Part shown: positions 12,893 to 36,600 of the stretch, one piece after another
Layout of the letters: each line of letters begins with the position of its first letter
Position numbering within the stretch: position 1 is the first letter of the stretch
Origin: Squalus acanthias
Lineage: Eukaryota
DNA: 64,000 bases
Assembly (NCBI GenBank): GCA_030390025.1
Contig: CM059431.1
Location: 129,086,001-129,150,000 of the forward strand
Direction of reading: 5' to 3'
Translations under genes and position numbers: made by a program
Notes under the pieces: model-generated
What the model was told of the DNA's origin: nothing
Seen by the model: the letters and a program-made list of their open reading frames with translations, nothing else
Database searches by the model: none

Positions 12893-14110
12893 TTACGCAA
12901 ATCTGGTATGGATGAGTGCATCCCTTGCCTGACACCCAGCAATGTGGTCACGTGCTGCTGGATTGGTCACATCCAGCCCCACAAGGTGTGGCTCCTTGTC
13001 CTCCTCGTCCTCCTCCTCGTCCTCCTCCTCGTCCTCCTCCTCTTCTTCCGAGGAGGCTGTGCGCTGAGCCATGCTGCTGTATGATGTTGTGCAGGGCACA
13101 GCAGACCACCATGATTCTGGAGACCCTGGCTGGTGCATACTGCAGGGCTCCAGCTGATCTGTTGGGGCATCAGAATCGCATTTCAAGCAAGCCGATGGTT
13201 TGCTCTATGATGCTTCTGGTCAAAATGTGGCTCACATTGTACTGCTCCTCAGTTTCGTTTGATGGCCTCCTCATCGGTGTCATGAGCCACTTTTTCAGGG
13301 GATAGCCCTTGCCGCCAAGTTGCCATCCAGAAAGTTAGGTTGGCGGATTGAAGAGCTGAGGCACAGTAGATTGGTGCAGGATGAAGGAGTCATGGCAACT
13401 GCCAGGGTAGTTTGCGCAAACATGCATGATGATCTTCCTGTGGTTACACATCCGCTGGACGTTAAAGGAGCGGTTGACAAATACAGCTGGGTTGTGATGG
13501 GGTGCCATATTGGCCACATGTGTGCAGTCTACGATGCCCTGCACCCTTGGGAAGTCTGCCATTTTTGCAAAGCCAACCGTACGCGTGGTCGCACTTGGGC
13601 CATCATTGGAGAAGTGGATGTAATTGTGCGACTTTGCAAAGAGGGCATCAGTAACCTGTGTGATGCAGGTGTGTGCGGCCGACTGGGTGATGCCGCTGAT
13701 GTCTGCAGCTGATCCCTGGAAAGAGCCCAAAGCAAAGAAGTTTAGTGCAGTGGTGACTTTGACAGCCACTGGTAAGGAGTGTCCACACTCTCCTTTGGGC
13801 TCCAGGTGTTGGTGCAGCATTGCGCAGATGTCAGCAACTACGTCTCGCGAAAGTCTCAGCCTCCTTTGGCACTGCTGCTCAGTCATGTTGAGGAAGGTCA
13901 ACCTCGGCCTGTAAACCCTGTGTTGGGGGCATCTCCTGCAGCGAGGTGCAGCCCTGCACTGACGCCCTCTGCCCTGTGCATCATCAGGTGGCTGAGGAGA
14001 AGGTTGGCGCTCCTGCTGTTGGTGCTGCTGCTGTGCCTGGTTGCGCTGCTGCCGCGGCTGCTCTTCTCCGAATCTGACGACCAGGATGAGAGGAGATAAA
14101 TGGTTCCCAT
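12893..14110 (-). pseudogene. Harbinger DDE transposase (HARBI1-like), frameshifted
   Basis: [67 protein letters not shown], poly-Glu/Asp tail ending ARDALIHTRFA*. Confidence 0.88.
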
Positions 14111-14212
14111 ACTGCTGGTATATATCTCAGTTGAGGAATAGAGGTTGTTTGTGCTCAGACAAAGTGGCCAGAGGGTCTTCCAAGGAGGGCACACTGCAGA
14201 TGAATTTCAGCT

Positions 14213-15878
14213 TGTAAGGGGTCTGTGTCATGCTTGTATCCCAGACGGTGCTGGTGCGGGGTTAGGCCTTCATTGCCTAATACTATTGCTTGCTCTGGTC
14301 TCCGGCCAGCTTTGTTGCAATAAGCACCTGTGAGTGGTTCGACCCACTCGCCCTTACAGTTCTAACACTGGACTTAGGTGCGAGAGCAGTAATGCAGAGA
14401 AAAACTCAAATAGACCCGGTTGAATAGTACGAAATGGAAATCTTTATTGCATAGCATCCAAAATCATGAAGTACATGTCATAGGCGCAAATTAACGAGAG
14501 TACAAGTATACATACATTCATAAAGCTTGGTCTATGGTAATGAAGAACGCACGGCACATCGTAAAAAGGGGAACACATTATATTTTATCCTTAATAAAAC
14601 CACCCTCCCTTATCAATACCTACACTACATCTAGATTTGTAGGATCGGGAAACATGCTCACCACTCGTGATACTTCGGAGAATTTTAAAGTGAGGCACTC
14701 GGCTCGTTTCGCTGCAGCGCCTGACTGTCACGTGTTTGGAGGGGTCTCTGTACCCCACTTGTTTATCTTCGCTGCTGCTGCAAGCAGGCTGGGCTCCCCG
14801 TTGTCATGAAGAACTCGACAGAACTCGGACACGGTTCGAAGAAGACTCTTCCTGTGTCCGACACCGGTTGCCGGTAGAATTCGAAAAAGAGTCTTTGGCC
14901 AGTTCGTGCAGTAACCTGTAGAGTTCCAGAAATGGGTCGTATATTTTCGGGCGCGGTCAGGGTTTACTGACCGCGGTGGCACGTGGATTCTTCTCCTCTT
15001 CTTCTCGTCCCGTCTCGTCTCTTCGGGCCTTCGGGTCCAGACACCGTTTACTGACCCTCGGGATGGTGCACCTGGTCACCGGCCTTCGTCGAGGTGGCTC
15101 GTTCCGTTTGAGCTCCACCCAACATTCGAATAACCGTCCAGTGCGGCTAAAAGTCCAGAGCCAACAGTCCAGAGAAACAAGAGCACGAATCAAGCGAATA
15201 AGAGTCGAATCAAGAGCATCAGCCGAGATAAGAGAATAAGAGCCGATTCGAGCGAATAAGAGACCGATGGACATTTGTTGTCTACAGTTATAGTGCTGTG
15301 TTCCCTTATCTCCCGCCCAAATCTTAATGTTTGTCCTTTGTGAAATATTGGCGCTCAAAACTCCCAGCATGGGGTGATTCTTGTCTTCAACGGGTTTTGG
15401 TAGCACCTGAGACTGGCCAACTACCCGTTAATGTTTTCCCCATTGTTGAACCGGCACGGAGCCTCCCTGGCTGGGTTTTGGGGGCCCCCGAATACTTGTT
15501 TAATCACCCGAGAATGGCTCTCTCATTGTAGAGCCGTGGGGGTATTTGCGTAATGATGTGTCTGGATGGGCCTTCGATTGCCCAGTACAATGGTCCTTAC
15601 TTGTGCATGGAAAACGATTCCAGCACTCATATCTTTTGCTATTGTCACAAATGCAAACAGGTTGCATCCTGTCTTTATCAGTGCTTATCGAAAATGTTTA
15701 TTCGAACGCCATCTTGTCTGCCCACTGTACTTCTGGAAACTTCTGCCACGATGCGCGGCGGCCATTTTACAGGCTTCTGTGTCCTTTATATCATGACAGC
15801 ATTTCGTTTAAATAAACTGATCAAACGAATCTGCTTTTATCTTGTTATTTCGAATCACGATAATTGCGAAACTTTACA
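14213..15878 (-). repeat. 3' LTR (1666 bp)
   Basis: Direct repeat of 24674-26339 with roughly 30-35 substitutions counted by eye and equal length; AATAAA (-) at ~14443-14448; TATA-like AAAATATAC (-) at ~14940. Confidence 0.95.
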
Positions 15879-15890
15879 GTCCCTCCTGTT
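15879..15890 (-). promoter_or_regulatory. Polypurine tract
   Basis: Minus strand AACAGGAGGGAC directly abuts the TG of the 3' LTR; short. Confidence 0.65.
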
Positions 15891-16274
15891 GATGCGAATA
15901 ACTCCGCTTATCGTATCAATTAAAAGTGGTGGTGAGCAAAATTATCCCGATTCTCCACATCCAAACACTCCCTTAACTTAAACTATCTATGGCCTCTATG
16001 CCGTCCTCATTTCCCAGGGAAATTACATTGTTTGGACTTGGACAAACCGTAGGCAGTATTGCCTTTAAACTTACATTGCGTATACACCTTCGAGGTGCAA
16101 CAGGACGATGCCTGTTGCACCACCTGTATATGCATGTTTTTATTATACAAGGAAAAAAATAATCAAACAACCATTTTAAAAATACAAAGTTCTAAACTTA
16201 GTTACACATCTTCATAACTAACAATCAATTACAAAAACACACATGGTAAAATGGAGCGGCGTCATCCTGGCCGT

Positions 16275-19200
16275 TTACGCGGTACTTTCCTCGTTCACGG
16301 CACGTAACGTTAAACATAGAACATAGAAGAGTACAGCACAGTACAGGCCCTTCGGCCCTCGATGTTGTGCCGAGCATTGTCCGAGACCAAGATCAAGCTA
16401 TCACACTCCCTATCACTCTGGTGTGCTCCATGTGCTTATCCAATAACCGCTTGAAAGTTCCTAAAGTGTCCGACTCCACTATCACAGCAGGCAGTCCATT
16501 CCACACCCCAACCACTCTCTGAGTAAAGAATCTACCTCGGACATCCCTTCTATATCTCCCCCCATGCACCTTATAGTTATGCCCCCTTGTAACAGCTGCC
16601 TCTACCCGAGGAAATAGTCTCTGAACATCCACTCTATCTATCCCCCTCATCATCTTATAAACCTCTATTAAGTCGCCTCTCATCCTCCTCCGCTCTAAAG
16701 AGAAAAGCCCCAACTCCCTCAATCTTTCCTCATAAGACCTCCCCCCCAAACCAGGCAGCATCCTGGTAAATCTCCTTTGCACTCTTTCCAATGCTTCCAC
16801 GTCCTTCCTATAGTGAGGTGACCAGAACTGCACACAATATTCCAAATGTGGTCTCACCAAGGTCCTGTACAGTTGCAGCATAACCTCACGGTTCTTAAAC
16901 TCAAACCCTCTGTTAATAAACGCCAACACACCATAGGCCTTCTTTACTGCTCTATCCACTTGAGTGGCAACCTTCAGAGATCTGTGGATATGAACCCCCA
17001 GATCCCTCTGCTCCTCCACGTTCCTCAGAACCCTGCCGTTGACCCTGTAATCCTTATTCAAATTTGCCCTACCAAAATGAATCACCTCGCACTTATCAGG
17101 GTTAAATTCCATCTGCCATTTTTCGGCCCAGCTCTGCATCCTATCAATGTCTCTTTACAGCCTACAACTGCCCTCCACCTCATCCACTACTCCACCAATC
17201 TTGGTGTCATCAGAAAATTTACTGATCCACCCTTCAGTCCCCTCCTCCAAGTCATTGATAAAAATCACAAACAGCAGAGGACCCAGCACCGACCCCTGTG
17301 GCACACCGCTGGTAACTGGTCTCCAGTCCGAAAAAGTTCCATCCACCACCACCCTCTGCCTTCTATGAGATAGCCAGTTACTTATCCAATCGGCCAAATT
17401 TCCCTCTATCCCACAACTCCTTACTTTCTTCATGAGACGACCATGGGGAACCTTATCAAACGCCTTACTAAAATCCATGTATACGACATCAACTGCTCTA
17501 CCTTCATCTACACACTTAGTTACCTCCTCAAAGAATTCAATCAAATTTGTTAGGCAAGACTTACCCTTCACGAATCCGTGTTGACTATCCCTGATTAAGT
17601 TGCCCCTTTCCAAATGGTCATAAATCCTATCCCTCAGGACCTTTTCCATTATCTTACCAACCACCGAAGTAAGACTAACCGGCCTATAATTACCAGGGTC
17701 ATTCCTATTTCCTTTCTTGAAGAGAGGAACAACATTCGCCACTCTCCAGTCCTCTGGCACCATCCCCGTGGACAGTGAGGACCCAAAGATCAAAGCCAGA
17801 GGCTCTGCAATCTCCTCCCTTGCCTCCCAAAGAATCCTAGGATATATCCCATCTGGCCCAGGGGACTTATCGACCCTCAGGTTCTTCAAAATTGCTAAAA
17901 CATCTTCCCTCAGAACATCTACCACCTCCAGCCTATCCACCTTTATCACACTCTTATCCTCAAGAACATGGCCCCTCTCCTCGGTGAACACTGACGAAAT
18001 GTATTCATTCATCACCTCTCCTATCTCTTCTGACTCCATGCACAAGTTCCCACTACTGTCCTTAACCGGCCCTACCCTCACCCTGGTCATTCTTTTATTT
18101 CTCACATAAGAGTAAAAAGCCTTGGGGTTTTTCTTGATCCGACCCGCCAAGAACTTCTCATGCCCCCTCCTAGCTCTCCTAAGCTCTTTTTTTAGCTCAT
18201 TCCTTGCTACCTTGTACCCCTCAATCGACCCAACTGAACCTTGTTTTCTCATCCTTACATACGCTTCCTTCTTCCTCTTGACTAGACATTCAACCTCTTT
18301 TGTGAACCATGGTTCTCTCACTCGGCCATTTCCTCCCTGCCTGACAGGGACATACCTATCAAGGACACGCAGTAATTGCTCCATGAAAAAGCTCCACTTT
18401 TCGTTTGTGCCTTTCCCTGATAGTTTCTGTTCCCATCTTATACTCCCTAATTCTTGCCTAATCGCATCATAATTACCCCTCCCCCAATTATAAACCCTGC
18501 CCTGCCGTATGGCCCTATCCCTCTCCATTGCAATAGTGAAAGTTACCGAATTGTGGTCACTATCTCCAAAGTGCTCTCCCACATACAAATCAAACACTTG
18601 GCCCGGTTCATTACCCAGTACCAAATCCAACGTGGCCCCACCTCTTGTCGGCCTATCCACATATTGTGTCAGGAAACCCTCCTGCACACACTGTGCAAAA
18701 ACTATCCCATCCGAACTGTTTGACCTATAAAGGTTCCAATCAATATTTGGAAAGTTGAAGTCACCCATGACAACTATTCTGTGACCTCCACACCTATTCA
18801 TAATCTGCTTTGCAATTTCTTCCTCCACATCTTTATTACTATTTGGGGGCCTGTAGAAAACTCCTAACAACGTGACCGCTCCTTTCCTATTTCTAACTTC
18901 AGCCCATATTACCTCAGACGGCAGATCCCCCTCGAACTGCCTTTCTGCCGCTGTTAAACTATCCTTGATTAACAATGCTACTCCTCCGCCTTTCTTAGCA
19001 ACTTCCCTACTCTTACTGAAACATCTATACCCCGGAACTTCCAACAACCATTCCTGTCCCTGTTCTAACCATGTCTCCGTAATGGCCACCACATCGTAGT
19101 CCCAAGTACCAATCCACGCTCCAAGTTCTCCTACCGTATTCCGGATGCTCCTTGCATTGAAGTAGACACACTTCAAGCCATCTTCCTGTCTGCCGGTACA

Positions 19201-21542
19201 TTCCTGCGACCTTGATACCCTCCTCAGTTCTCTCCACTCTCCTGTGTTCTCCTGCTTTGTGAGGCGCTTGCCTCTTTTGCAGTGCACGACCAATAGGTAC
19301 ACTACTATTATAACTTGGCACACTACCAAAATGTGGGAGGCTATCCGGATCCATGAAGGAACTTCAACATTGGTGAACAGGTCCCACCACGGTGGGATTA
19401 CTATGTCCAAAATTTCTGTCCCTATTTCTACAGTCTTTTGTTCCAGGGTGTAAAAATGTTTTTGTGATACCGCGACGGCTTTCAAAAGCTTGGTAAGGTG
19501 TTCAGGGAGAGGGGGAATGATGTATCCGAAATGCGCGACGAATCGCTGCAAGTCGGTGAAATTCTCTTTTACTGTGAGATGAACAGTGGATGGTTCAGGG
19601 ATCGGGACAATTCGCTGTTGTGCCACTTGAACTTCAGCTCTGGGTTTAAAACAGAAACTGCTGTCACTCACCGGACACCGGCTGTGGATTCCATGCTGGT
19701 AGTGTTGCGCTGCAGTGGTAACGCAATATGTTCCACCCCCTATGTATGCCACCTGCGGAGGCACATGATCTTGTGTCATTGCTTCCATGGTGCAATTCAT
19801 GGGCTTCGCGCCAGCAGTTCTGAACCCGCATTGTGGTGTTAAAAAGGCATTCAAGTGCTGGGGACAGAGTATGATGTGTGCTCCCCGGCCACGACAACCC
19901 GATAGGTCGGTACCTGTCATCGTTTGCTCCCAGCGGATGACGTAAGGTGGGACCGCTGCGTAGCGAATGTGGGCTCCCCCCTGAATGACACCAATGTTCT
20001 CCACCCGATACACCGGGGCGGGCTTTGCTGTGTCGCCCAAAACCGGCATACGTAGTACTATACCCATGATGGTATGGTTTGACCGTCCGCAGTCCGCGGG
20101 GACTGGGTATGCCTCTGAGGCTAGCCTGAGCTGGCACGGGCTTAATGCATTCTGAAAAGGGTGGAGCGCCGCAGGTGTTTGTTACTTATCCAGGATGGGA
20201 CCAAACCTTGTTTTAAATCCTCTAAATTACTGCGGCCCTCGCCCAGTAACCACGCCCCGTATAGTACGCACACCTCGTTCTGCGCAGCTTGATCGGATGC
20301 GTTCCGATCTTCCCTGATCAGGGCATTTACCGTTCTCGCATGCTTCTCCAGCTCTGCTATAATTTCTTTTAAGTGTAACGTCATGGCCTGGTCCTCATGT
20401 AACTCAGACCCTACTACCTTGTTTTCGCTTGTGAGGATGCTTTTTAATTGTGTTTTTAAACCATTGATCTGGGTCTGCAGCTCCACGTTGTCTAGAGCGT
20501 TGACCACAGATGTTCCTGTATTAAAGGCAGTGAACGTATCGTTCACAATACCCCTTCTTTGTCTCCCCACCTGATCCAAAACTTCGTGTGGTGTGGTGTA
20601 CAAGCTTGTTTTGTCAATCTCTGCAAAATCAAACTCGTAGAATTGTCTGAACATGTTTGTCAACAGGACCTGGTACAATTGTTCCGTCTCTTTGGGGCAC
20701 CACTCTGGTAAACGCACCTCGGTGAGATTTAGAATCACCGAAGCCACCGCGTAATGTACCCCTTGAAATAGTATCTGGTCTGTTGGGACCAGTACCAAAC
20801 CATTCCCGGGCCCCTTAGTGGTTTTAGGGCACCCTTCCTCCTGAGCCAAAACCACCGGAATCGTGGGCGGAGCCTTGCGTGGGCGCTTGATGAGTTCAGT
20901 GGCGTTTACCGGGATCGGGGAGAATGGAGCTCCGCACCCCTTTGTGCTGACATCCCACCTCATCCCTTTCCTGTTATCCTGCCACTGGTGTACGAAAAAT
21001 ATGGATATACCCTTGGGGCAAACGTACTTCGATCCCCACATACAAACATATATTCCCTCATCCGGTTCCCACCATTTGTCCCAACAGACTTTCAATTGTC
21101 CGTTAGTCCCCGTAATTGTCCGATGGGTATTGTTACCCAATCGCTCCCACTGAACCGAGGAATTTCTCATAGTCTTGCTTAACTTCCGTAACCACCACCA
21201 TCGGCTCAATGGGACCTTCCCATTGCATGTCAAACAAATCCTTTTGCCGACGGTGACGCTGATTCTGGGTGCAATGATCCTCACTCTGGGGCACAGTAAA
21301 GAAGTCTCTTTGTAGGCAAATCCGGACGCGCTTGAGTATTCCGTTGAATTCGTTCCCAGCCATCCCGGCCACCTTCCCTTGTGGAAATAAGTGGCGGTCT
21401 CCTCAGCCTTTCGCTCCCCGGTCCCGTCCGTCGTGATGGGGCCCGTGTCCCCGGAGCAACCAAACACAACGACATCCTTGGTGAGGCCCCGATAGGCCAA
21501 TCCATATCCGATCGTTGCGAGCACTATCAGAATCCTTTCCAT
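16275..21542 (-). pseudogene. env: env-like glycoprotein (~775 aa reconstructed): signal peptide, Ig-like domain, furin site, class I fusion-like ectodomain, TM; 1-nt frameshift at ~20172 and CR1 insertion at 16314-19244
   Basis: MERILIVLATIGYGLA signal; VTVGKRICLTC...WWW...GQLKV...DEGIYVC Ig motif; RQRR at 20564-20553; heptads VELQTQINGLKTQL; restoring one base gives [27 protein letters not shown]...-[35 protein letters not shown] then KRGKR; probable tail LTLRAVNEESTA* beyond the CR1. Confidence 0.85.
16314..19244 (-). mobile_element. CR1 LINE with near-complete ORF2 (APE + RT), inserted into the env cytoplasmic tail
   Basis: [62 protein letters not shown]; one in-frame stop at 17155-17157, then ORF 16393-17139; (TTCTATG)n tail at 16314-16328. 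Confidence 0.95.
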
Positions 21543-21726
21543 CTTTCCTGGTTCCTGTGATCAGATAAAATGATGTAGCCAGCCTCCCAAGAGTCTCTGG
21601 CTTTTGTGAAGGGTGAGCGGGTCCCTTGACCTCGTCTCACGTAAAAAGACATGTATGCTGGATAGACTTTAACTATTCCTATCACTAAAACTCCCATCAC
21701 TTTACCATTTACCTTTTTATAAAATT

Positions 21727-21796
21727 AAACTACAAACTTACCAAACTTACAAACTTAAACTTAAACTTATAAACTTATAAACTTATAAACTTATAC
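21727..21796 (+). repeat. AT-rich tandem (AAACTTA[T/C])n between ORF2 and env
   Basis: aaacttac aaacttaaac ttaaacttat aaacttataa acttataaac ttatac. Confidence 0.8.
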
Positions 21797-21829
21797 TGTA
21801 CAGTGCCGCCCGTTCCCAGGGCAGCCTAC

Positions 21830-22869
21830 CTAAAGTCTGCGAAGGCTGCCACGAGCTTTTCCCAGTGGTGGGAGGGCACTGACCCCTTCCTTTGATCTGC
21901 CGCAGCCTGTTGCTGCTGCGCTGGGACTGGGATCTCCCTGGGCTGCCTTGACCTTGAACTTACGCCTGGGGGTGTACGGGGGACTTGACCACGGCTTCCT
22001 GGGCTGGGGTGTCCGACTTGACCTACGGAGGGCTACATTGGGCAAGATTTCCAGGGCCGACGGACCAGGAACCAAGACTTCCACCGTCACGGCCTGTGGT
22101 CCCACCACAGCCGCTGGCTCCGTCTCCCCTGGCTCCGCCTCCCTGAACTCGGGATTTGCAGCTTCTGGTTCCACCCTACTTGGCCCAGTATGTGGTCCTC
22201 CACTCGCAATCCCTACCTCCCCCAAGGGCAAGATTCCAGGGCTGACGGACCGGGTACCGAGACTTCCACCGTCACGACCTGTGGTCCTACCACAGCCGCT
22301 GGCTCCATCTCCCCTGGCCCCGCCCCCCTGGAATCGGGATCTGCAGTTTCTGACTCCACCCTGTGTGGATCTCCACTCGCAGCCCCTATCTCCCCTGAGC
22401 TTGAGTCGAGGACGAAACTTTCGTCCTCCGACTCCAGCACCTCTCCGATCGGGTCACTATCTTGGTCGAGCTCCTCGAGCTCTTCCTCATCTGAATAAAA
22501 GATCCTACACTTTTCTAGAATGTCCACTCCCCTCAAGCAGGCTGCTACCCTGGGCTGAGAGTCCCCACTCGCAGGTTTGGTCCCTCCCCTGAGACAGGCC
22601 ACCGCCCCTGCTTGTGCCTTCTGTGAAATCTCGCCTGCTGGAGGCTGCAGATTTCTATTCTGTTTTAAATCCTCATACTCCCTGCTCCTGGTTACCCTGT
22701 AGGCTGCTTTTATGTCTCTAAGCTGCCTTTCCAGCCTGTCTACCTTCCCCATTAAACGGGCGTTCTCCTCCCGCAAGGCCTGCTCTTTTAACCTGGCCTC
22801 CTTACAGGAGACCCCCTCCTGTGCGCGTCTTTCAAGGGGACACAGGTAGGCAGGCTGCACCGGTTCCAG
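21830..22869 (-). pseudogene. ORF2 in the pol position: coiled coil + acidic tract + 2 x ~60-aa repeat + basic tail; 1-nt frameshift at ~22232
   Basis: ORFs 22213-22860 and 21830-22231 join if one A is restored (ggaatcttgccc versus ggaaatcttgccc in the sister repeat); in frame with gag behind TGA 22872-22870; no D[ST]G, YxDD, HHCC or DDE motif. Confidence 0.75.
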
Positions 22870-24669
22870 TCAGAAGCCTGGGTTGTATGGGGCTGTTGCT
22901 ACCTCCCCGTGCGAAATCATAAGGGACCGTATAGCTCCCAACATTGATTCTATCGCATCGGGATGGATAGGCACACCAGCTCCTCTCTCAGAGACAGGCG
23001 CTTGTTTTCGGGCTGCGGGATTTTTATCCCTGGGGTCCTTCTAGGGGTTCCTACAGTTCTTATGCCAGTGACCTGTCTTCCCGCACCCGTAACAAGCACC
23101 ACTGGCTTGTGGGGCGCGGTTTCCCTCCTGATGCCAGTCCTTTTGAGCCGGGGCTGCGGGCCGTGCCTCATGCACCTTTCCCTTAAGGGGACGCGCTCCC
23201 GTGCTCCTAGTGTTCCGATACCCTATGGTGAGTCGATTTAGGACCGACTCCTCTGTTGTGGCGGGGTTAGTGGGATCAAACCACGCTTTGGCCTGCTCCC
23301 TGACGGCTGGCAAACTGTTGGCTACTAAACACCTGAGCCAGTGAGTTAAACCGGCACCGTTCAGATAGGTGCGCGCTGGCGCACCTGGGCAGCTACGCTG
23401 GTGTACTGGCCACAGCCTGTCGGCGAAAACCTTCGGGGGTTCTCCCTCCATCTGCAGGGTTTGACTCAATCTGACAAACGGACCTTCGTCATCCACCCCT
23501 AACACTTCTAGGACCTCGTCCCTTAACTCCTCATGGGTTTTATTTCCCCTCTTGCTCTCGTCTGAGAGACACTGGAGGATCGAGCTATCTAACGAGAACA
23601 GCAACATTTTGGTCTTTTCCTCATCGTCGCAGCCATTAATTGCTGCGGTCTGTTCTACCTCCCTAAAGTGTACGGAAGGGTCGTCTGATTCGGATAGCTT
23701 CTGTACATGGCTAATCATTGCTCTCAGCTGGTGTGAGCTGTGAGGCAATACGAGCTGGTTCAGGACATCCCCCTCTGCCCCATTTGCCCCACCCGGGCCT
23801 CTCTTGTGACCTCGGAGCGGACACATCGGTCCCGGTCTCGGCTCTACCTCCGGGGACTGTCCTACCTCGGGAACCTTCTTCTCTATTTCCACCACTTCCT
23901 CCCTTTCCCAGGTTGCCGAATAGCTGGGTGGCGCGGAGGGCGCAGTGGCAAATACCTCCTCTGCTTTGTCTGGTAGGGATTTTGGGAATTCCCTACCCAC
24001 CTGTGGCTGGTTTGCTGACGGGCTGATGAGGCACACCATGCCGTTTGCCTTATTCAGGGCCTCTCTTAGGTTCCCTATCTCCTTTTGGCAAACACTGTGG
24101 TCGGCTCCCTCATGCCTATCCTCGAGGGCCATCTTATATGCCGCCCTAACTCCCTTCAAGCTTTCTTCTTGGGCTTTTATCTGGTTAGCTAGGCGGATAC
24201 ACCGTTCTCTAATCCTACCCTCGTTTAATTTCGCTTCCATGACCTGACACTCTAGGTAATCAATTTTAGCCTCATGGTGGTTGGCTACTATCTGGCGTTC
24301 CTGATGTAACGCATTCAAGGATGCAATGAGTTTCTGTCCTCCCGTGACCTTTTCCTCCATCTCAACTTCCAATTCCCTGATCTGAGCTGCCTGTGCTACA
24401 ATGACCTGGTCCGAAAGTTGGACTTGCTTCTTGTAGCACATCAGCCAGACCGCTTTCTCTACCGACTTCTTATGCACTTTACTGCCTGTCCATTTGATGG
24501 CGGCGTCTAGCGGACGCTTATCCATCAGTAGGTCACTTATCCACCTTTTGGCTAAGTTAACCTTCCCAAACACATAGTCGGCTACCCTCTCATCCATCAC
24601 ATTTCGCCTATTCACACCAGGGTCTAAAATATTACTCTCTCGCTGCCAGAGTCCTGCCGCGGTCGCCAT
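22870..24669 (-). CDS. gag: gag-like polyprotein (coiled-coil N-part, late domains, capsid, one CCHC knuckle); TAG at 23043-23041 may be premature
   Basis: Open 24669-23041; PSAPPSY at 23940-23920; MHR-like LQMEGEPPKVFADRL; CYGCGKTGHWHKNC; the frame stays open for 56 more codons after the TAG up to TGA at 22872-22870. Confidence 0.88.
24649..24668 (-). promoter_or_regulatory. Primer-binding site complementary to tRNA-Arg(TCG)
   Basis: Plus strand GAGTCCTGCCGCGGTCGCCA equals the 3' end of vertebrate tRNA-Arg(TCG) plus CCA as recalled from memory; lies 5 nt (GAAAA) inside the 5' LTR end. Confidence 0.85.
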
Positions 24670-24673
24670 TTTC

Positions 24674-26339
24674 TGTAAGGGGTCTGTGTCATGCTTGTAT
24701 CGCAAACGGTGCTAGTGTGGGGTTAGGCCTTCGTTGCCTAATACTATTGCTTGCTCTGGTCTCCGGCCAGCCTTGTTGCAATAAGCACCTGTGAGTGGTT
24801 CGACCCACTCGCCCTTACGGTTCTAACACTGGACTTAGGTGCGAGAGCAGTAATGCAGAGAAAAACTCAAATAGACCCTGTTGAATAGTACGAAATGGAA
24901 ATCTTTATTGCATAGCAGCCAAAATCATGAAGTACATGTCATAGGCGCAAATTAACGAGAGTACAAGTATACATACATTCATAAAGCTTGGTCTATGGTA
25001 ATGAAGAACGCACGGCACATCGTAAAAAGGGGAACACATTATATTTTATCCTTAATAAAACCACCCTCCCTTATCAATACCTACACTACATCTAGATTTG
25101 TAGGATCGGGAAACATGCTCACCACTCGTGATACTTCGGAGAATTTTAAAGTGAGGCACTCGGCTCGTTTCGCTGCAGCGCCTGACTGTCACGTGTTTGG
25201 AGGGGTCTCTGTACCCCACTTGTTTATCTTCGCTGCTGCTGCAAGCAGGCTGGGCTCCCCATTGTCATGAAGAACTCGACAGAACTCGGACACGGTTCGA
25301 AGAAGAGTCTTCCTGTGTCCGACACCGGTTGCCGGTAGAATTCGAAAAAGAGTCTTTGGCCAGTTCGTGCAGTAACCTGTAGAGTTCCAGAAATGGGACG
25401 TATATTTTCGGGCGCGGTCGGGGTTTACTGACCGCGGCGGCACGTGGATTCTTCTCCTCTTCTTCTCGTCCCGTCTCGTCTCTTCGGGCCTTCGGGTCCA
25501 GACACCGTTTACCGACCCTCGGGATGGTGCACCCGGTCACCGGCCTTCGTCGAGGCAGCTCGTTCCGTTTGAGCTCCACCCAACATTCGAATAACCGTCC
25601 AGTGCGGCTAAAAGTCCAGAGTCAACAGTCCAGAGAAACAAGAGCACGAATCAAGCGAATAAGAGTCGAATCAAGAGCATCAGCCGAGATAAGAGAATAA
25701 GAGCCGATTCGAGCGAATAAGAGACCGATGGACATTTGTTGTCTGTAGTTATCGTGCTGTGTTCCCTTATCTCCCGCCCAAATCTTAATGTTTGTCCTTT
25801 GTGAAATATTGGCGCTCAAAACTCCCAGCATGGGGTGATTCTTGTCTTTAACGGGTTTCGGTAGCACCTGAGACTGGCCAACTACCCATTAATGTTTTCC
25901 CCATTGTTGAACCGGCTCGGAGCCTCCCTGGCTGGGTTTTGGGGGTCCCCGAATACTTGTTTAATCACCCGAGAATGGCTCTCTCATTGTAGAGCCGTGG
26001 GGGTATTTGCGTAATGATGTGTCTGGATGGGCCTTCGATTGCCCAGTAAAATGGTCCTTACTTGTGCATGGAAAATGATTCCAGCACTCATATCTTTTGC
26101 TATTGTCACAAATGCAAACAGGTTGCATCCTGTCTTTATCAGTGCTTATCGAAAATGTTTATTCGAACGCCATCTTGTCTGCCCACTGTACTTCTGGAAA
26201 CTTCTGCCACGATGCGCGGTGACCATTTTACAGGCTTCTGTGTCCTTTATATCATGACAGCATTTCGTTTAAATAAACTGATCAAACGAATCTGCTTCTA
26301 TCTTGTTATTTCGAATCGCGATAATTGCGAAACTTTACA
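24674..26339 (-). repeat. 5' LTR (1666 bp)
   Basis: Direct repeat of 14213-15878; followed on the minus strand by PBS and gag. Confidence 0.95.
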
Positions 26340-26769
26340 AGCTTGAACACTCACAAGATCAGTAGAGCTGCAAAATGTGTCCCAAAACCTCAAAGCACTA
26401 AGTTGTGGCATCTGAAACTCAGAGATGGTGCGGGACCACTTTTAAGCTGCTGAAGCAGCTGCCAACAATTCAGGTCCTCACTAAACCCGGCTCAATGCAG
26501 CTGGCGTGTTTGTTCGACGACGGGGAACACGCAGAAAAAGCTACAAAATCGCAACAGGCAGTTAAAATAAGATTATCCAGGCAGTTAACAAGCTGTTATC
26601 TGCCTTAAGTGCCTCTCCCACCGTTTGGTGTTGGGTCAGATCGGGACTCGCTGACCCGACACTTGTCAAAGTAGCATGGAGGTGGGATGGTGGCGAATTC
26701 GCAATCCGCCGTCAATCATTTAGATTTTCGCTACCGACCCGCCCTCTAAGCGCCGGCAAATTCGCAGCC

Positions 26770-28935
26770 TAAGATTCTAGATTTAGGTTAGGCCAACTTC
26801 AACGGGATGAGGCCGAGAATGTCCACAGTAAACTGGGCAAATCTGTTAATGGGTAAAATGACAGAACATCAGTGGGAGATGTTTAAAAAAGAATTTAATG
26901 TGATACAGAACCAGGTCATACCCCTGAGGGGCAAAAGCTCTACTTGCCAAAAAAAAGCCATGGACAACTAAAGAGGCAAAGGACAACATAAAACTAAAGG
27001 AAAGGGCATACAAAATTGCAAAAAATAGCACAAATCCTGGTGTATGGGAAAGATACAAAGAACAGCAAAGAGCTACAAAAAGGGAGTATGAAAAGAAACT
27101 TGCAAGGGATAGAAAAATCAATACGAAGAATTTTTAGTTACATTTGGAAAAGGATGGTGGTCAGGAGCGATGTTGGCCCCTTAAATACTGAAAGTGGTGA
27201 TATTGTCAATGACAATGCGGAAATGGTGGACATGTTGAATAATTACTTTGTGTCAGTATTTACAGTAGAAGAAGAGGATAGCATGCCGGAAATCCCAAAG
27301 AAACGGGATTTTATTGAGTCGGGGACAGGGACTCAATAAAATTAACGTAAGTAAATTAACAGTAATGAAGAAAATAACGGCATTAAAGAGTAACAAATCC
27401 CCAGGACCAGATGGTTTTCATCCCAGGGATTTAAAGGAAGTAGTTGAGCACATTACAGATGCCCTAACTATAATCTTCCAAAGTTCTCTAGATTCAGGAA
27501 CTGTCCTTTTAGATTGGAAAATTGCGCATGTCACTCCGCTATTTAAGAATGGCGAAAGAGGGAAACCAGGGAATTATAGACCAGTTAGCCTTACATCTGT
27601 TGTGGGGAAATTGCTAGATTCTCTAATTAAGGATAGGGTGACTGAACAACTTGAAAATGTCAATTGATCAGAGAGAGCCAGAATGGATTTGTGAAAGGTA
27701 GGTCATGCCTGACAAACCTGATTGAATTTTTTGAAGAGGTGTCTTAAGTAGTGGACAGGGGAATGTCTATGGATGTTATTTATATGGACTTCCAGAGGCA
27801 TTTGATAAAGTTCCACATAACAGACTGTTATCTAAGGTAGAAGCCCATGGAATTGAGGTCAAATTATTGACCTGGTTAGGAAAATGGCTGAGTGGCAGGA
27901 GACAGAGAGTAGGGATAATGGGCAGATACTCAAATTGGCAGGATGTGACTAGTGGTGTCCCACAGGGATCTGTGTTGGGGTCTCAACTATTAACGATATT
28001 TATTAATTCCTTAGATGATGGCATAGAAAGTCATATATCCAAATTTGCCGATGACACAAAGATAGGCGGCATTGTAGGCAGTGTAGATGAAAGCATAAAA
28101 TTACAAAGTGATATTGATAGATTAAGTGAATGGGCAAAACTGTGGCAAATGTATTTCAATGTAAGCGAATGTGAGGTCATTCACTTTGGACCTAAAAAGG
28201 ATAGAACAGGGTACCTTCTAAATGGTGAAAAGCTAAACACAGTGGAGATCCAAAGAGACTTGGGGGTCCAGGTACATAGATCATTAAAATGTCATGAACA
28301 GGTACAGAAAATAATCAAAAAGGCTAATGGAATGCTAGCCTTTATATCTAGAGGACTAGAGTACAAGGGGGTAGAAGTTATGCTGCAGCTGTACAAAACC
28401 CTGGTTAGACCACACCTGGAGTACTGTGAGCAGTTCTGGGCACCACACCTCAGGAAGGATATATTAGCCTTGGAGGGAGTGCAGCGTAGGTTTACCAGAA
28501 TGATACCCGAACTTCAAGGGTTAAATTATGAGGAGAGATTACACAAATTAGGGTTGTATTCCCTAGAATTTAGAAGGTTAAGGAGTAATCTGATTGAAGT
28601 TTTCAGGATATTAAGGGGAACAGAGAGAGAAACTATTTCCGCTGGTTGGGGATTCTCGGACGAGGTGGCATAGTCTAAAAATTAGAGCCAGACCTTTCAG
28701 GAGTGAAATTAGGAAATATTTCTACACACAAAAGGTGGTAGAAGTTTGGAACTCTCTTCCACAAATGGCAATTGATGCCAGATCAATTGTTAATTTTAAA
28801 TCGGAGATTGATAGCTTTTTGTTAACCAAAGGGGTTAACCATTAAGGGGTATGAGCCGAAGACAGGTCCGTGGAGTTAGGTCACAGATCAGCCATGATCT
28901 CATTGAATGGCGGAACAGGCTCGAGGGGCTGAATC
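26770..28935 (+). mobile_element. CR1 LINE 3' part (RT), degraded
   Basis: [41 protein letters not shown]; 3' UTR gatcagccatgatctcattgaatggcggaacaggctcgagggg. Confidence 0.9.
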
Positions 28936-31721: not shown

Positions 31722-33600
31722 CTACTTTTTGCCCTTCGAGGGTGATCTCCTTCCCTTGCGCACTTCCCCCCTTCTAACCCTACTGCTCCTCCGTAATGGG
31801 ACCTCAGTGGCTGCAGCAAGGCTGGTGGAAGGCTGCTGCTCGTCAGACCCTGACACTGCAGATGCCCCTGAAGGACGGCCTCGACCACTTCTGGGCCTGG
31901 AGGGCCCGGCTGCAGACTGCACCAACTCTGCATGGGCGGCAGCAGTCTGTCCTACAGGCGGTGGCAAGTGCAGTGGAGAAGTGACAGTGTTGGCAGCAGG
32001 AATGCTGTCATCATGAGAGAGGCCAGCAACTCCCTGCTCGCCCGACACACTGGCACTCCCATGGGGCAGCACTTCAGCATCCGGAGCAATCTGCCGGAGA
32101 ACAGATTGCTGGCCTGCTGCGGCGCGGTGACAGCCCCGGGGACATGTGCACGAACCATCGAGGTTGGCAGCAGTCTGTGCTCGCGTGGCCTCCATCTGAG
32201 TCTGTATGAGAGCAGTCAGAGGTGGGATCACGGCAGCCAGTGACTGAATTGCAGCACTAAGCGTTAGTGTGGCATCCGCCTGTGCTACAGCGAAGTGCTC
32301 CACACTCCTTGCCAGTGACTCAATGCATTCGGGCACCCTTCCCACTGCACCCATGAGCTCAGTGTGCATGCCCACCGCCTGGGTGTTCATTTCTGCAATC
32401 AGCCGCTCCTCCTCTGCGTCCATTGCAGTAGGAGTGTCTGGCATACTCTCCCTCTGGGGAGAAGGCCCCCGTTCTTCCCTACCCCCCCCCCATGGCGTTG
32501 CTGCAGCCCGCTGGGTCCTGGAGCTTCACCATCATCAGCCCCTTCCCACCTGCTCCCCTCCGGGGAAGGCGTGTTCCCAGTGTGGGCATGGGCTTCCTCG
32601 GGAGAGGGTGGCACTGATGCTCTGGCTTCCTCTTCCTCCTCAGCTGCAGCATCACTCCCAGTGGCAGCTTCAGGGCCCGTCTCCTCAGCTGGTGAATCAC
32701 CATCTGAAAGCAGGGAGGTACAAGAGTGGCTTTAGCGTGAGGACAGGGTGGCAGTAAGGGAGGAATAAGTGCAGCGAGTTAGCAAGTTGGATTGAAAGTG
32801 TCAAAGGCTGGTGTTGTGAGGGACAAGTGGAAGGACAGAGGACAAAAAGGTGATGACCTTACCATTGCTGTCCACAACGGGGTCGGCGTCTCCAGTGGCG
32901 ACGGGACCGATCACCCGGCTTGCCACAATCCTGTGGACGCGCTCCTCCAGATCGCTGAGGGGTTGCAGCTGAAGCCGCCCTCCACCTGTCCGTTGCTGCT
33001 GTCTCCTATTATGAGCCAGCTTAGCCTGCAAGTAAAAGGACAGCATCTGAGTAAATATACAGCCATGGTCTTGCCTGATGTGCCTCCCATAGGTGAATAG
33101 CCCTTACTGTATGCAGCCATGGTCTTGCCTGATGTGCCTCCCATATGTGAATAGCCCTTACAATATACAGCCATGGTCTTGCCTGATGTGCCTCCCATAG
33201 GTGAATAGCCCTTACTGTATGCAAAGTGTGGAATGTGTGTCTGTGTTTGATGAAAGGGCCATAGGTGTTGGATGAGTGTTGTGCATTGGGGTTTTAAGAC
33301 CCTCTGGCCATAGAGTGAGGTTGAGATGGAGGGATGGAGAGGTATTGAGAAAAAGCCACTCACCCTGACGACCCGAGTGAGGTCGTTGAACTTTTTGCGG
33401 CATTGAGTATGGGTCCTGGGCACCATGCTCCTGGAGGAGACGCTTTGAGCCACCTCCCTCCACACTCTTCTGAACTCGCGTGGCAAAGGCCTCCTGCCAC
33501 TCTCAGGGAAGAGCATACATCGTCTGCGCTCCACTGCGCCAACCAGAGCATCCAAGGCCCGCTCGGTGAAGCGATGAGCGCGTTCTCTCACCCTCTCCAT
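31722..33600 (-). pseudogene. Harbinger Myb/SANT-like gene, exons 33600-33364, 33025-32863, 32703-31722; frameshift at the G-run ~32482-32491
   Basis: RERAHRFTERALDALV...VWREVAQSVSSRSMVPRTHTQCRKKFNDL; AKLAHNRRQQQRTGGG; GT-AG introns phase 0 and 1, as in the 10692 gene. Confidence 0.85.
33056..33222. repeat. 3 x 54-bp tandem repeat in Myb intron 1
   Basis: agccatggtcttgcctgatgtgcctcccat... recurs at 33061, 33115, 33169. Confidence 0.9.
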
Positions 33601-36600
33601 GCTTGGCAGCAAAATGGATTCACAGGTCTCTCCAGGCTGAGATTCAAGGCTGCAATGAGCAGGGTGTGGCTGGGGAGCAAGTGGCCCCCCCCGCTTTAAG
33701 AAGTGTCCGGCGCCAGTGTGTCTGTGTTCCCTCGCTAACTGGCAGTAGCTGCGCTGCGCTCGCGCGCTGAGTTAGCGCCTCACTCCTTGGCCTTTGTGCC
33801 TTAAGACAGGTGTGCAGCGCCTGCTTTAGCGCTCCACTCACCTCCCGGGGCGGTAAAATTGAAGTTTCCTGTCAGTGCCGATAATTAGCGCCAGGCGCTA
33901 ATATTTGCGTCCAGACGTTATTTGCGCCCCAAATGGGGCGCGACCTAATTTCTACCCCCAACAGTTTTATTTGAAATTACGAGCTTTCGGAGCTCTGTTC
34001 CTTCGTCAGGTGCAGTGAGGGAATACGAATCAGTTACAAAGTATATATAGACAGAGAACAATGTTTAACTTCTAGGGTCAGTGTAATTTGCATAATTATG
34101 GCAAGCTCCAGTCATCAGATATGCCTGTCATTGTGAGCTGGATTTGTTAGTTCCAGGAAATACCTGCTGCTTCAAGACTTAAAGGTTTGCAGTAACTTAA
34201 CATTTTACAATTCTCTTCATCTAAAGGATAACAGTGCTCCTCCAGGCTCCACGAGGAAAGTTTAGGCCTCTCCTGCCTCAGGCTCTCCCTTACCCTCCCG
34301 AAACCAGTTCCCCACAACTTACCTTGTTGTAGGCAATCGTTTTCTTGGTTCTGGCCAGTGGCCTCCTGCTGCCCGAAATTCCGCTCACGTTTTTAATTGT
34401 GCACTGTGGTAAATATAGTCGACATTAAGTTCCACGGGCGTTCGCCTGCTCGTCAGCCGTACCTTCGGGAGAAGATCTGGGGGAAACACAGAGAAAATGT
34501 GCAACCGCCTAATGCTGTTTCTGCAGAATGTCTGCAGATTCTTCAGCAAAATGACAGCAAATGATCAGGAGAACCTCCCCCACAAATTCAACCCTAGTAT
34601 CTTGTGAAACAAAAGACTGAGAAGTTCTACATGGCAAAGGAAATATTAAAATGTAAGAATGTTGTACAAAATAGATGTCTTTATCTGATTAAATTCTTAG
34701 GGTCAGCCGCCCACCACCCCCTCACTCCCACCCGTGCCACACTAGACAGGTGCAGTGCAGCTGAGATGTGCTGCATCTGTGAAGCCTGCAGTCCATGGCC
34801 TGGATGCAGCCTCTGCACAGCCCCAACCCCTGGCACGGCCTTGTGCAAGGAACCAGGGTGGAAACAGGATTTTAGCTGCCGGCCTGGCCTGCTGGGGCCT
34901 TCTGGCTGCTGCTGAAAATCCCGAGACCTGAAAATCCTGCTGGGGAAGTAAAGTATTTACCTACCTGATTGGCACAAACCAGTTTTTTTGGAGTGCTTCT
35001 ACATTTGGGAGCCCCATAAACAAACATGGAGGAAATGAAGACCTGATTTCCCTAGCAGCTCCTAACCTATACCTTCGACAGGTACAGGCTCGGCCTGCCC
35101 ACTGGAGGAAGCCTTGCAACTTCCAAGGAAGCATAGTGGGGGTGGAGAATATACGTAGCCGGTCTCTGCCACCATTTCTTCTCCATAGCGTCTGAAAACA
35201 GCCTTCTCCATGAGCTGTGATGTGGAAAATTAGCCCTCTGATATTGGGCATTGAAACAGAGAATAAAAATAAAAAGCACAACACTAAATTGTTTTAGGGG
35301 ATCCTGAAACTGCCTTATAACAACCCAGAAAATAGAAATCTTCTCCTCTCCTGACAGAAAATAGCTAGTTGTACTGGTCAACACAATGGGAACAATGTCC
35401 AAACCTGTAGTTTCTGGCATCAGTGTTTGGACACACAGAATGCTAAAGATAATGATAGAGAACCTTTACCCTCAATGAGAAATAGTACAGTGCTGCTATG
35501 CAAAGCACATTCTACAATTCACAAAACGTGATGTTATTTCTATTTCATTTAGTATTCATGACATTGGGACTATTCTGTGTCATGTATGCCCTGGGAAATG
35601 CTAAGATTGGTAGCCTGCATTATTTCAAACCTGACAACTGAATTGCATCAGTGTCTAATGCACTGCAGGACTTTGCTTCTTTCCTGATAATTCGAGTAAA
35701 CGTCTTACTGCTCTGTGTAATGGAAAACATATTTGTTAAAGTCATCATTAATAATCTGGATATATATTTGGGCACTAAATTTTCCAAAAGACTGTTTGGT
35801 CCTATCAACATGTGCATATGCTAAAAATAAAATCAATTTTAGCTCTTCACCTCTGGGTACATCAACATTAGATATGGTTAATGAGGCATTATAAACACAA
35901 TGGCAAGAGTTCCATTTGAAACTCACAATTGTTACAAATCAATGAAAGAAGTTAAATTGGTTTCCATACTTTTTCACATAATATTAAGATTATTAAATAG
36001 CTTTTCATTACTCAATACATTTTAACAAAAAACAATGAGAATACAAAACTATTCCTCACATGACTGATTTGGACATAACATATAAATAAGCTGGAAAACT
36101 TCATTACAGAACAAATGTCTTTAACGTTCCATGATTTATTTTGAATCAAGAGAAATGGCACAGCTTGGCCTTGCTGTTATAAACACCTGTCTGTGTCCTC
36201 TATGGATCCGAATGCTGTTGATAGCTGGCTCTGTTACTGTTGCTTGGTAGTTATGTTGAAGCAACATGCAGGATCGGTAGCTCAAGAACAGGTGTTCTTT
36301 TCCATTCTATAAGATGTTGAATATCCCCTGCTGACTAATCTATAATCTATATCTTTACAGCACTGTTCCTCCCCCTTACATGTTCCAACACAGAGAAGCC
36401 AGTGCCAGAATAATTAATATTTCCTCATCAAAATACAAGATTGGGATGAATTACTGCAATGAAGAGTAAAATGCTTAAGACTAGTTTATCTCAGGATCCC
36501 TTTGTCCTTCCCTACCCAAAGGATAAACTTCTAAAAATATTTTGGTGATTGTTCTTTTGTGTTCTCCTGATGAGGAATGCCAGCAATGGGAAATGTTGAA

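Follow-up and report, generated by a model that had tools for sequence, protein, structure and literature searches.

A recurrent pol-less endogenous retrovirus family with gag and an F-type env in Squalus acanthias, probably mobilised in trans by a pol-bearing relative

A stretch of 64,000 nucleotides (nt) from the spiny dogfish Squalus acanthias (assembly GCA_030390025.1, contig CM059431.1, positions 129,086,001 to 129,150,000), hereafter called the window, carries on its minus strand a whole endogenous retrovirus (ERV) at 14213..26339 plus flanking AGCT duplications, with gag, a second open reading frame (ORF2), and env but without pol (Table 1). Our analysis indicated that this element is very probably one decayed copy of a non-autonomous family, designated class A, that was helped in trans by a pol-bearing family, class B, of the same genome. 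An earlier note, made from the window alone and giving no strand, had described an element that looked normally integrated, and the following of its structural claims were recovered: the 1666-bp long terminal repeats (LTRs), put at about 98% identity, differ by 33 mismatches and no gaps (98.0%; Kimura two-parameter distance, 0.020); the 4-bp target-site duplication is present at both element ends; a polypurine tract stands directly before the 3' LTR; and the internal region of 8795 nt shrinks to 5880 nt, against the claimed ~5.9 kb, once a nested long interspersed nuclear element (LINE) of 2915 nt is subtracted. The LTRs start with TGTAAAG and end with CCTTACA, and the primer binding site TGGCGACCGCGGCAGGAC begins five bases past the 5' LTR. 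When a pattern composed of the primer-site complement and the T-arm motif was run on the host genome, this 25-nt tRNA 3'-end motif gave 398 exact matches, and ARAGORN called tRNA-Arg(TCG) at both of the matching loci that were fetched, in agreement with the proposed tRNA-Arg primer. The window copy thus shows every cis signal for reverse transcription and integration, namely, the LTR ends, the primer site, and the polypurine tract.

The enzymes themselves are missing. Pfam searches of all ORFs of at least 150 amino acids (aa) in the element returned LINE domains only, with no protease, reverse transcriptase (RT), RNase H, or integrase of the element's own, and tblastn of the complete pol of a close relative against the window gave a single match, 13 residues of the pol tail, so that the absence of pol reported in the note is borne out. 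In addition, the window copy is decayed, and all its reading frames are broken: gag contains one in-frame stop, ORF2 has a 1-nt deletion that splits its frame into 218 and 207 aa, and env is shifted by a 1-nt deletion near 20150-20180 and additionally carries the inserted LINE. Compared with another class A copy and class B, its pol tail is also short by ~25-27 nt at ~22546 (element positions 3994/3995).

The host assembly (3.71 Gb) was searched for further members of class A, the pol-less family of the window. The LTR gave 40 scored matches with 89-100% identity, whereas a 5424-nt internal stretch was collinear at 15 other loci among 33 scored candidates, with 3 of the 15 split by a small insertion, and a query with the patch, a 321-nt piece that takes the place of pro-pol, gave 40 scored matches that were all 95-100% identical. 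Six more class A copies were fetched, all of which kept the gag-ORF2-env order, and the class A junctions were identical in all seven aligned copies; these seven, together with the four class B copies described below, are the best-scoring matches to the window copy and so represent a small, biased sample. The complete two-LTR copies, window included, had unique flanks and different 4-bp duplications in 6/6 cases (AGCT, ACCT, CTCT, CTCA, TCTC, and GTTC) and lay in six contigs or regions. LTR divergence within class A ranged from 0.9 to 4.9%, and the seventh copy, with a truncated 3' LTR, gave no duplication score. Moreover, a class A-specific junction 30-mer had 446 matches over at least 25 contigs; like the other 30-mer counts given here (matches at three or fewer mismatches, reversed controls 0 each), this is a rough figure that includes tandem and segmental arrays, and the junction and RT probes differ in conservation. 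The 6/6 complete copies and the 446 junction matches thus bear out the idea that the gag-ORF2-env layout occurs at independent loci with different target-site duplications.

Another 17 loci matched only the 3' part of the internal stretch, from query position ~2006-2452 on. At 4/4 of the env-only loci that were fetched, the upstream DNA encodes protease, RT, RNase H-like tether, RNase H, and integrase domains according to Pfam (among the four loci, RVP, RVT_1, RT_RNaseH_2/RT_RNaseH, RNase_H, Integrase_H2C2, and rve or SH3), and at another five env-only loci the coordinates place a pol match immediately upstream. Compared with the window element, these class B elements show ~93% identity in the part made up of 5' LTR, primer site, and gag, and ~96% identity in the part that begins with the pol tail and includes env. 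Two complete class B proviruses of ~12.7 kb each share the LTR ends, primer site, and polypurine tract of class A, and they are flanked by the 4-bp duplications GGAG and GGCT, with LTR divergences of 1.45% and 1.37%. A class B RT 30-mer had 2213 matches in the host genome; pol-bearing elements with the same LTR termini and primer site, which the note had proposed to look for, are therefore present and abundant beside the pol-less ones. In class B, pro-pol stands in the same frame after the gag TGA, and pol continues past the integrase SH3 for ~290 acidic, repeat-rich residues to end ~260 nt before env. Bit scores of the class B RT against solved polymerases were 217 for gammaretroviral, 194 for foamy, 141 for Ty3, and at most 59 for HIV enzymes. 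The opinion that the element, having no RT, could not be placed did not hold, since its full-length relatives are nearly identical to it and supply a pol by which it can be placed.

Classes A and B differ at one site, where 3757 nt of pro-pol in class B stand against 321-322 nt in class A, and the length difference of 3435 nt (3 x 1145) keeps the frame. ORF2 is in frame after gag and is unbroken in 4/7 class A copies, with a length of 350-359 aa. It starts LEPVQPAYLCPL, compared with LEPAQPVYLCPL at the start of class B pro, and its C-terminal part equals the class B pol tail (94% identity over 264 aa). The ~83 residues between the pro codons and the pol tail include a coiled-coil segment similar to that of gag, with a Smith-Waterman score of 81 compared with a mean of 34, a standard deviation of 5, and a maximum of 69 in 2000 shuffles. 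ORF2 is thus built of leftovers from pro, gag, and pol. The novel, organised ORF that had been seen in the pol slot is accordingly real as an organised frame, but it is a mosaic of pro, gag, and pol pieces rather than new coding matter. ORF2 belongs to no Pfam family and has no usable Atlas match (best, 0.84), and when ORF2 residues 1-110 were used in a word-indexed protein search, no match emerged that would point to an origin of the patch outside the host genome.

A source for the patch was found within the host genome. A patch 30-mer common to classes A and C gave 745 matches, many of them with a two-mismatch variant, and class C was defined from three variant patch loci and one complete element on host contigs C1 and C2. 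This is a further pol-less gag-ORF2-env family, with 0.93-kb LTRs that are 97.6% identical to each other and that gave no match in a comparison with the class A LTR; its duplication is ATTG, its ends read TGTAAG...CTACA, its primer site is of the Arg type but with two differences, and its polypurine motif is the one seen in class A, to which its gag and env are 68% and 72% identical. In the class C ORF2 of 298 aa, unbroken in 2/3 copies, the patch is native and is accompanied by 138 nt that are missing in class A. This ORF2 resembles the gag of class C (43-45% identity; E values from 2e-19 to 4e-18) more than the gag of A and B (38%). The stretch with 91-95% identity between classes A and C begins shortly before the gag stop and ends at a GGGGCCA heptamer, which also occurs in class B just past integrase. 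Taken together, the comparison shows the patch as a copy from the older pol-less class C. Because the patch is 91-95% identical to class C while gag is only 68% identical, class A is a recombinant of classes B and C, in which one crossover falls in homologous sequence at the gag end and the other at the shared GGGGCCA just past integrase. Under the established template-switching model, in which recombination takes place between two RNAs packaged in one retroviral particle, such an origin implies that pol-less and pol-bearing genomes were once co-packaged.

Ratios of nonsynonymous to synonymous substitution rates (dN/dS) were estimated pairwise by the Nei-Gojobori method for the true frame and for two shifted-frame controls, with copies covering less than 70-80% of a region dropped. 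Among class A copies only (n=7), and with pairs that are not independent, dN/dS was 0.42 for gag (shifted, 0.98 and 0.93), 0.30 for env (shifted, 1.04 and 1.02), and 0.68 for whole ORF2 (shifted, 0.78 and 0.86); with class B added, the values for gag and env were 0.42 and 0.29. For the patch, dN/dS was 0.49 (shifted, 0.62 and 1.47; 6/7 class A copies, one dropped for low coverage), and for the pol tail of A and B together it was 0.69 (shifted, 0.90 and 0.64). Gag and env thus bear a purifying-selection signal even among class A copies, and ORF2 is without clear constraint.

The family env frame of 789 aa is arranged as signal peptide, RQRR cleavage site, fusion peptide, long helix, beta-rich domain, second helix, and membrane anchor; in the translations, RQRR is followed by the hydrophobic GIVND(T/M)FTAFNTGTSVV, so that the basic cleavage site abuts the fusion peptide. 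By sequence, env gave no PDB match and no Pfam family, with no PF00523 up to E values of 5 or 0.1, and one distant env relative had a weak Baculo_F match (E=0.0011). A structure model of env built with 38 natural relatives had a mean predicted local distance difference test (pLDDT) score of 62, and most of residues 240-320 and 430-660 scored 85-97. Foldseek with this model yielded 238 matches at E values of 0.001 or less; the top match was the F protein of human parainfluenza virus 3 (1ztm; E=8.8e-12), and all rows shown were F proteins. The F-like env of the note was thereby borne out, and the modelled fold is confirmed as that of paramyxovirus/pneumovirus-type F proteins. The immunoglobulin part that the note had also assigned to env was not confirmed, given an E value of 0.27 for Ig_3 and low model confidence there. 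The nearest annotated env relative is an uncharacterised skate protein (77% identity over 49% of the query), and sawshark gene models are also related. At 19664-20185 on the minus strand, env is overlapped by an open frame of 172-173 aa that is read in a different phase and occurs in 10/13 env-bearing pieces; it could be chance or an overlapping gene, with the shifted-frame dN/dS of env at ~1.

The identity of gag rests on its position, a weak CCHC knuckle, and non-significant capsid-like fold matches. In unbroken class A copies, gag reaches the TGA at 22870-22872 and measures 617-644 aa from stop to stop, and its Met start matches the start of a skate protein beginning MATTKG. The CCHC knuckle had E values of 0.059 in the window copy and 0.0026 in an unbroken copy, below the Pfam cutoff, and a PDB sequence search with gag gave matches limited to this zinc knuckle. 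The gag model had a pLDDT of 47, and its best fold matches were capsids (Arc, HIV-1 capsid, and the C-terminal domain of murine leukaemia virus capsid), none of them at an E value of 0.001 or less. In class B, gag precedes an in-frame stop and then protease, a position that supports the earlier gag call. The nearest annotated gag relative is again an uncharacterised skate protein (58% identity over 97% of the query), along with sawshark gene models. No leader separates gag from the primer binding site; the two overlap at the gag ATG (24667-24669), only 5 nt past the LTR.

Since the layout is a family trait and pol-bearing relatives with the same cis parts are abundant, helper dependence is the best reading of class A. 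Class A is most likely a derivative of a lokiretrovirus-like ERV mobilised in trans, the mobilisation itself being what we infer. The helper-dependent lineage of the note thus stands as far as helper dependence is concerned; a separate pol-less retrovirus lineage was not borne out, class A being a deletion-recombinant morph of a resident ERV. In such a scheme, class A RNA would have been packaged in particles of Gag-Pol made by class B proviruses of the same genome, and class B enzymes would have copied and integrated it, giving rise to hundreds of germline copies with 4-bp duplications. The class B LTR divergence (~1.4%) lies within the class A range, suggesting that the autonomous partner was active at the same time. 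Because gag and env keep a purifying-selection signal among class A copies, class A may also have spread via particles, probably with re-infection, or may have exchanged gag and env with class B by recombination, which is the weaker part of the scheme. Several points weigh against this account. Simple trans-complementation would leave class A gag and env free to decay; to explain the selection signal, either cis-preference or recombination with class B has to be assumed as well. Star-like trees were obtained for gag (10 rows) and for tail/env (11 rows), with 0/7 and 0/8 strongly supported inner branches and with A and B intermixed, and they neither show nor exclude ongoing A-B exchange. Finally, the copy sample is small and biased, the dN/dS pairs are non-independent, and the 30-mer counts are rough.

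Lack of pol as a deletion or assembly error private to the window locus is almost certainly wrong: the same junctions in 7/7 class A copies, the distinct duplications, and the 446 junction matches refute both a locus-private deletion and an assembly artefact, and short contigs of uncertain kind from two other studies bridge the patch-tail junction 22585/22586. Multiplication of class A mainly at the level of DNA, through segmental or tandem duplication instead of reverse transcription, would agree with patch arrays on host contigs C3 (six, at 6417-nt spacing) and C1 (three, at ~19.39-kb spacing), but all six sampled complete copies were unique in flanks and duplications, and matches are spread over at least 25 contigs, making this explanation very improbable. 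The RT of the nested LINE was also considered as an enzyme source and rejected, the LINE being absent from the six other class A copies.

Other alternatives would give class A a more active part than helper dependence requires. ORF2 might encode a working protein, translated by read-through of the gag stop as a Gag-ORF2 fusion, whose coiled coil enters or disturbs helper particles; the pol-less families would then be active parasites rather than passive deletion morphs. Gag ends in a UGA-C context, one that is leaky in other viruses, and the arrangement here would suit such a product: after the gag TGA, ORF2 lies in the frame used by class B pro-pol, the replacement of pro-pol keeps that frame, the ORF is unbroken in 4/7 class A copies and 2/3 class C copies, its N-terminal part is a diverged gag coiled coil that scored far above shuffles, and the module is common to two families with backbones ~30% apart. 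Nevertheless, we consider a working ORF2 unlikely, because its dN/dS shows no clear constraint as a whole, in the patch, or in the tail, because the family, protein, and Atlas searches gave it no usable relative, and because neutral decay after insertion would also leave the frame open in about half of the copies. In addition, when the 83 nt past the gag stop were folded for classes A, B, and C, the result was no better than for shuffled sequences (z of -0.45, -0.05, and -1.14, in a test that scores no pseudoknots). A broader possibility, somewhat less doubtful than a working ORF2 though still improbable on balance, is that the pol-less state is a portable module: a gag-derived junction cassette would have arisen in class C and recombined onto the then-active pol-bearing backbone, so that a satellite retrovirus lineage, dependent on a helper for enzymes only and equipped with a working capsid and an F-type env for infectious spread, would survive helper turnover by replacing its cis and structural parts.

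Helper dependence of this kind has known counterparts. Friend spleen focus-forming virus is a replication-defective exogenous retrovirus whose genome retains structural or env-derived coding sequence and is packaged and copied by the enzymes of a helper. Unlike such defective viruses, which are somatic isolates from the laboratory or the field, acutely pathogenic and often with captured host genes, class A is a germline family of hundreds of copies without a host gene. Deletion-recombinant ERV morphs as a kind are already known from mouse, koala, cattle, and zebrafish; what is unusual here is the retention of a complete gag and F-type env, and class A also arose through recombination with an older family that likewise lacks pol. 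Among the non-autonomous morphs with autonomous partners described in the available part of PMC10924933 are bovine ERVK[2-1-LTR] D-type/C-type, ETn/MusD, IAP I-delta-1/IAP, and recKoRV/KoRV-A; in bovine ERVK C/D, MusD/ETn, and KoRV/recKoRV, a central segment is swapped for a piece of another retroelement while the gag and env flanks are kept. As in the bovine, mouse, and koala cases presented there, class A keeps the LTRs and flanking gag/env, both morphs reside in one genome, the short morph was inserted many times independently, and recombination between morphs is seen. By contrast with the same systems as that text gives them (PMC10924933), class A loses exactly pro-pol in frame and keeps complete gag and env frames with a selection signal, whereas the bovine D-type has no full-length ORFs; the piece inserted in class A was derived from a second family without pol; the pol-less morph is a minority (446 versus 2213 probe matches, from probes that differ in conservation), compared with 85% for the bovine D-type; the host is a cartilaginous fish; and the mobilisation of class A is known only by inference.

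The zebrafish elements BHIKHARI Bik-1 and Bik-2 are non-autonomous relatives of lokiretroviruses (bioRxiv 10.1101/2024.03.25.586437, as far as the accessible text describes them). Class A is similar in being a pol-less LTR element, in a Gag that opens with a coiled coil and continues with a capsid domain (a putative one in class A), and in its kinship to viruses with F-type env, and the Bik-1 Gag of 617 aa equals in length the stop-to-stop class A gag frames of 617 aa; this likeness is by description only. BHIKHARI contains gag only, without pol or env, whereas classes A and C keep env, and the 789-aa env frame sets the present family apart from a gag-only type. In the sections available of PMC7947760 and PMC9040795, membership in lokiretroviruses, or 'lokiorterviruses', is defined by RT phylogeny. 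Like the viruses characterised in these sources, class B has gag, protease-RT-tether-RNase H-integrase, and env between LTRs, with a dual RNase H in pol (a degenerate tether, RT_RNaseH_2/RT_RNaseH, and then a second RNase H, RNase_H), and the predicted env shares the signal peptide, basic cleavage site, fusion peptide, coiled coils, membrane anchor, and F-like fold reported for lokiretrovirus env (PMC7947760, PMC9040795). Departing from the lokiretrovirus pattern, env has no PF00523 sequence match, and the closest solved polymerases are gammaretroviral and foamy. Neither source, in its main text as far as available, lists cartilaginous fishes among the hosts, and literature combining a lokiretrovirus with a cartilaginous-fish host was absent among the matches listed.

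These elements matter in several respects. RT-based screens miss hundreds of proviruses in this host genome, which also holds an expansion, with thousands of probe matches, of F-env, dual-RNase-H ERVs in a cartilaginous fish. As the A/B pair differs by exactly pro-pol, it offers a sharp case for asking which viral genes act in cis, and together with the older class C it forms a natural set for parasite-of-parasite dynamics in an F-env ERV group. The chimeric origin is direct evidence of pol-less and pol-bearing genomes meeting in one particle.

Table 1. Features of the class A element and its nested LINE in the window, listed in element orientation (positions are those of the window)
Feature	Position	Strand	Description
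Target-site duplication AGCT	26340..26343	(-)	upstream of 5' LTR in element orientation
5' LTR	24674..26339	(-)	1666 bp, TGTAAAG...CCTTACA; 98.0% identical to 3' LTR
Primer binding site TGGCGACCGCGGCAGGAC	24651..24668	(-)	complementary to 3' end of host tRNA-Arg(TCG)
gag	22870..24669	(-)	N-terminal coiled coil, helical capsid-like part, CCHC knuckle; window copy ends early at in-frame stop 23041-23043
ORF2	21830..22869	(-)	pol frame: 12 pro codons, patch, and post-integrase pol tail; frameshifted in window copy
Patch	22586..22906	(-)	321 nt; 91-95% identical to class C; holds diverged gag-coil copy
Two tandem units in pol tail	22049..22362	(-)	acidic, proline- and serine-rich; 129-nt repeat, 88%
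env	19227..21542	(-)	F-type class I fusion protein; frameshifted in window copy
Nested LINE	16312..19226	(-)	2915 nt; endonuclease and RVT_1 (Pfam), CR1/L2-like tail repeat; insertion 32 nt before env stop
env last 32 nt and stop, 3' untranslated region, polypurine tract	15879..16311	(-)	
Polypurine tract AGGAGGGA	15880..15887	(-)	directly before 3' LTR
3' LTR	14213..15878	(-)	1666 bp
Target-site duplication AGCT	14209..14212	(-)	downstream of 3' LTR

The LINE nested in env had been labelled CR1. A LINE with endonuclease and RT is indeed present, and its short tail repeat is CR1/L2-like. The LINE is missing from all six other class A copies fetched and looks like a young insertion. At 16393-19226 on the minus strand, its long open frames run through endonuclease and RT and are fused by chance to the env frame, producing a 1008-aa stop-to-stop ORF. 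Within the U3 of the 3' LTR, a 156-aa open frame at 14957-15427 on the minus strand is broken in the 5' LTR of the window element.

The surroundings are rich in repeats. A Harbinger-type DDE_Tnp_4 transposase fragment (13335-14126, minus strand) adjoins the 3' LTR, a Myb/SANT-like ORF lies at 32911-33771 on the minus strand, and further LINE fragments with RVT_1 and endonuclease were found on the plus strand at 4009-4707, 27735-28673, and 61543-62646. Elsewhere in the host genome, regularly spaced patch-bearing units occur at C3:64285992-64318104 and C1:115478918-115517726, and class B RT matches also show the 19.39-kb spacing; this regular spacing indicates tandem or segmental duplication of proviral DNA. 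Large tandem tRNA-Arg(TCG) arrays with a spacing of 1623 nt occupy host contig C26 at ~38.99-42.22 Mb, with tRNA-Ser nearby.

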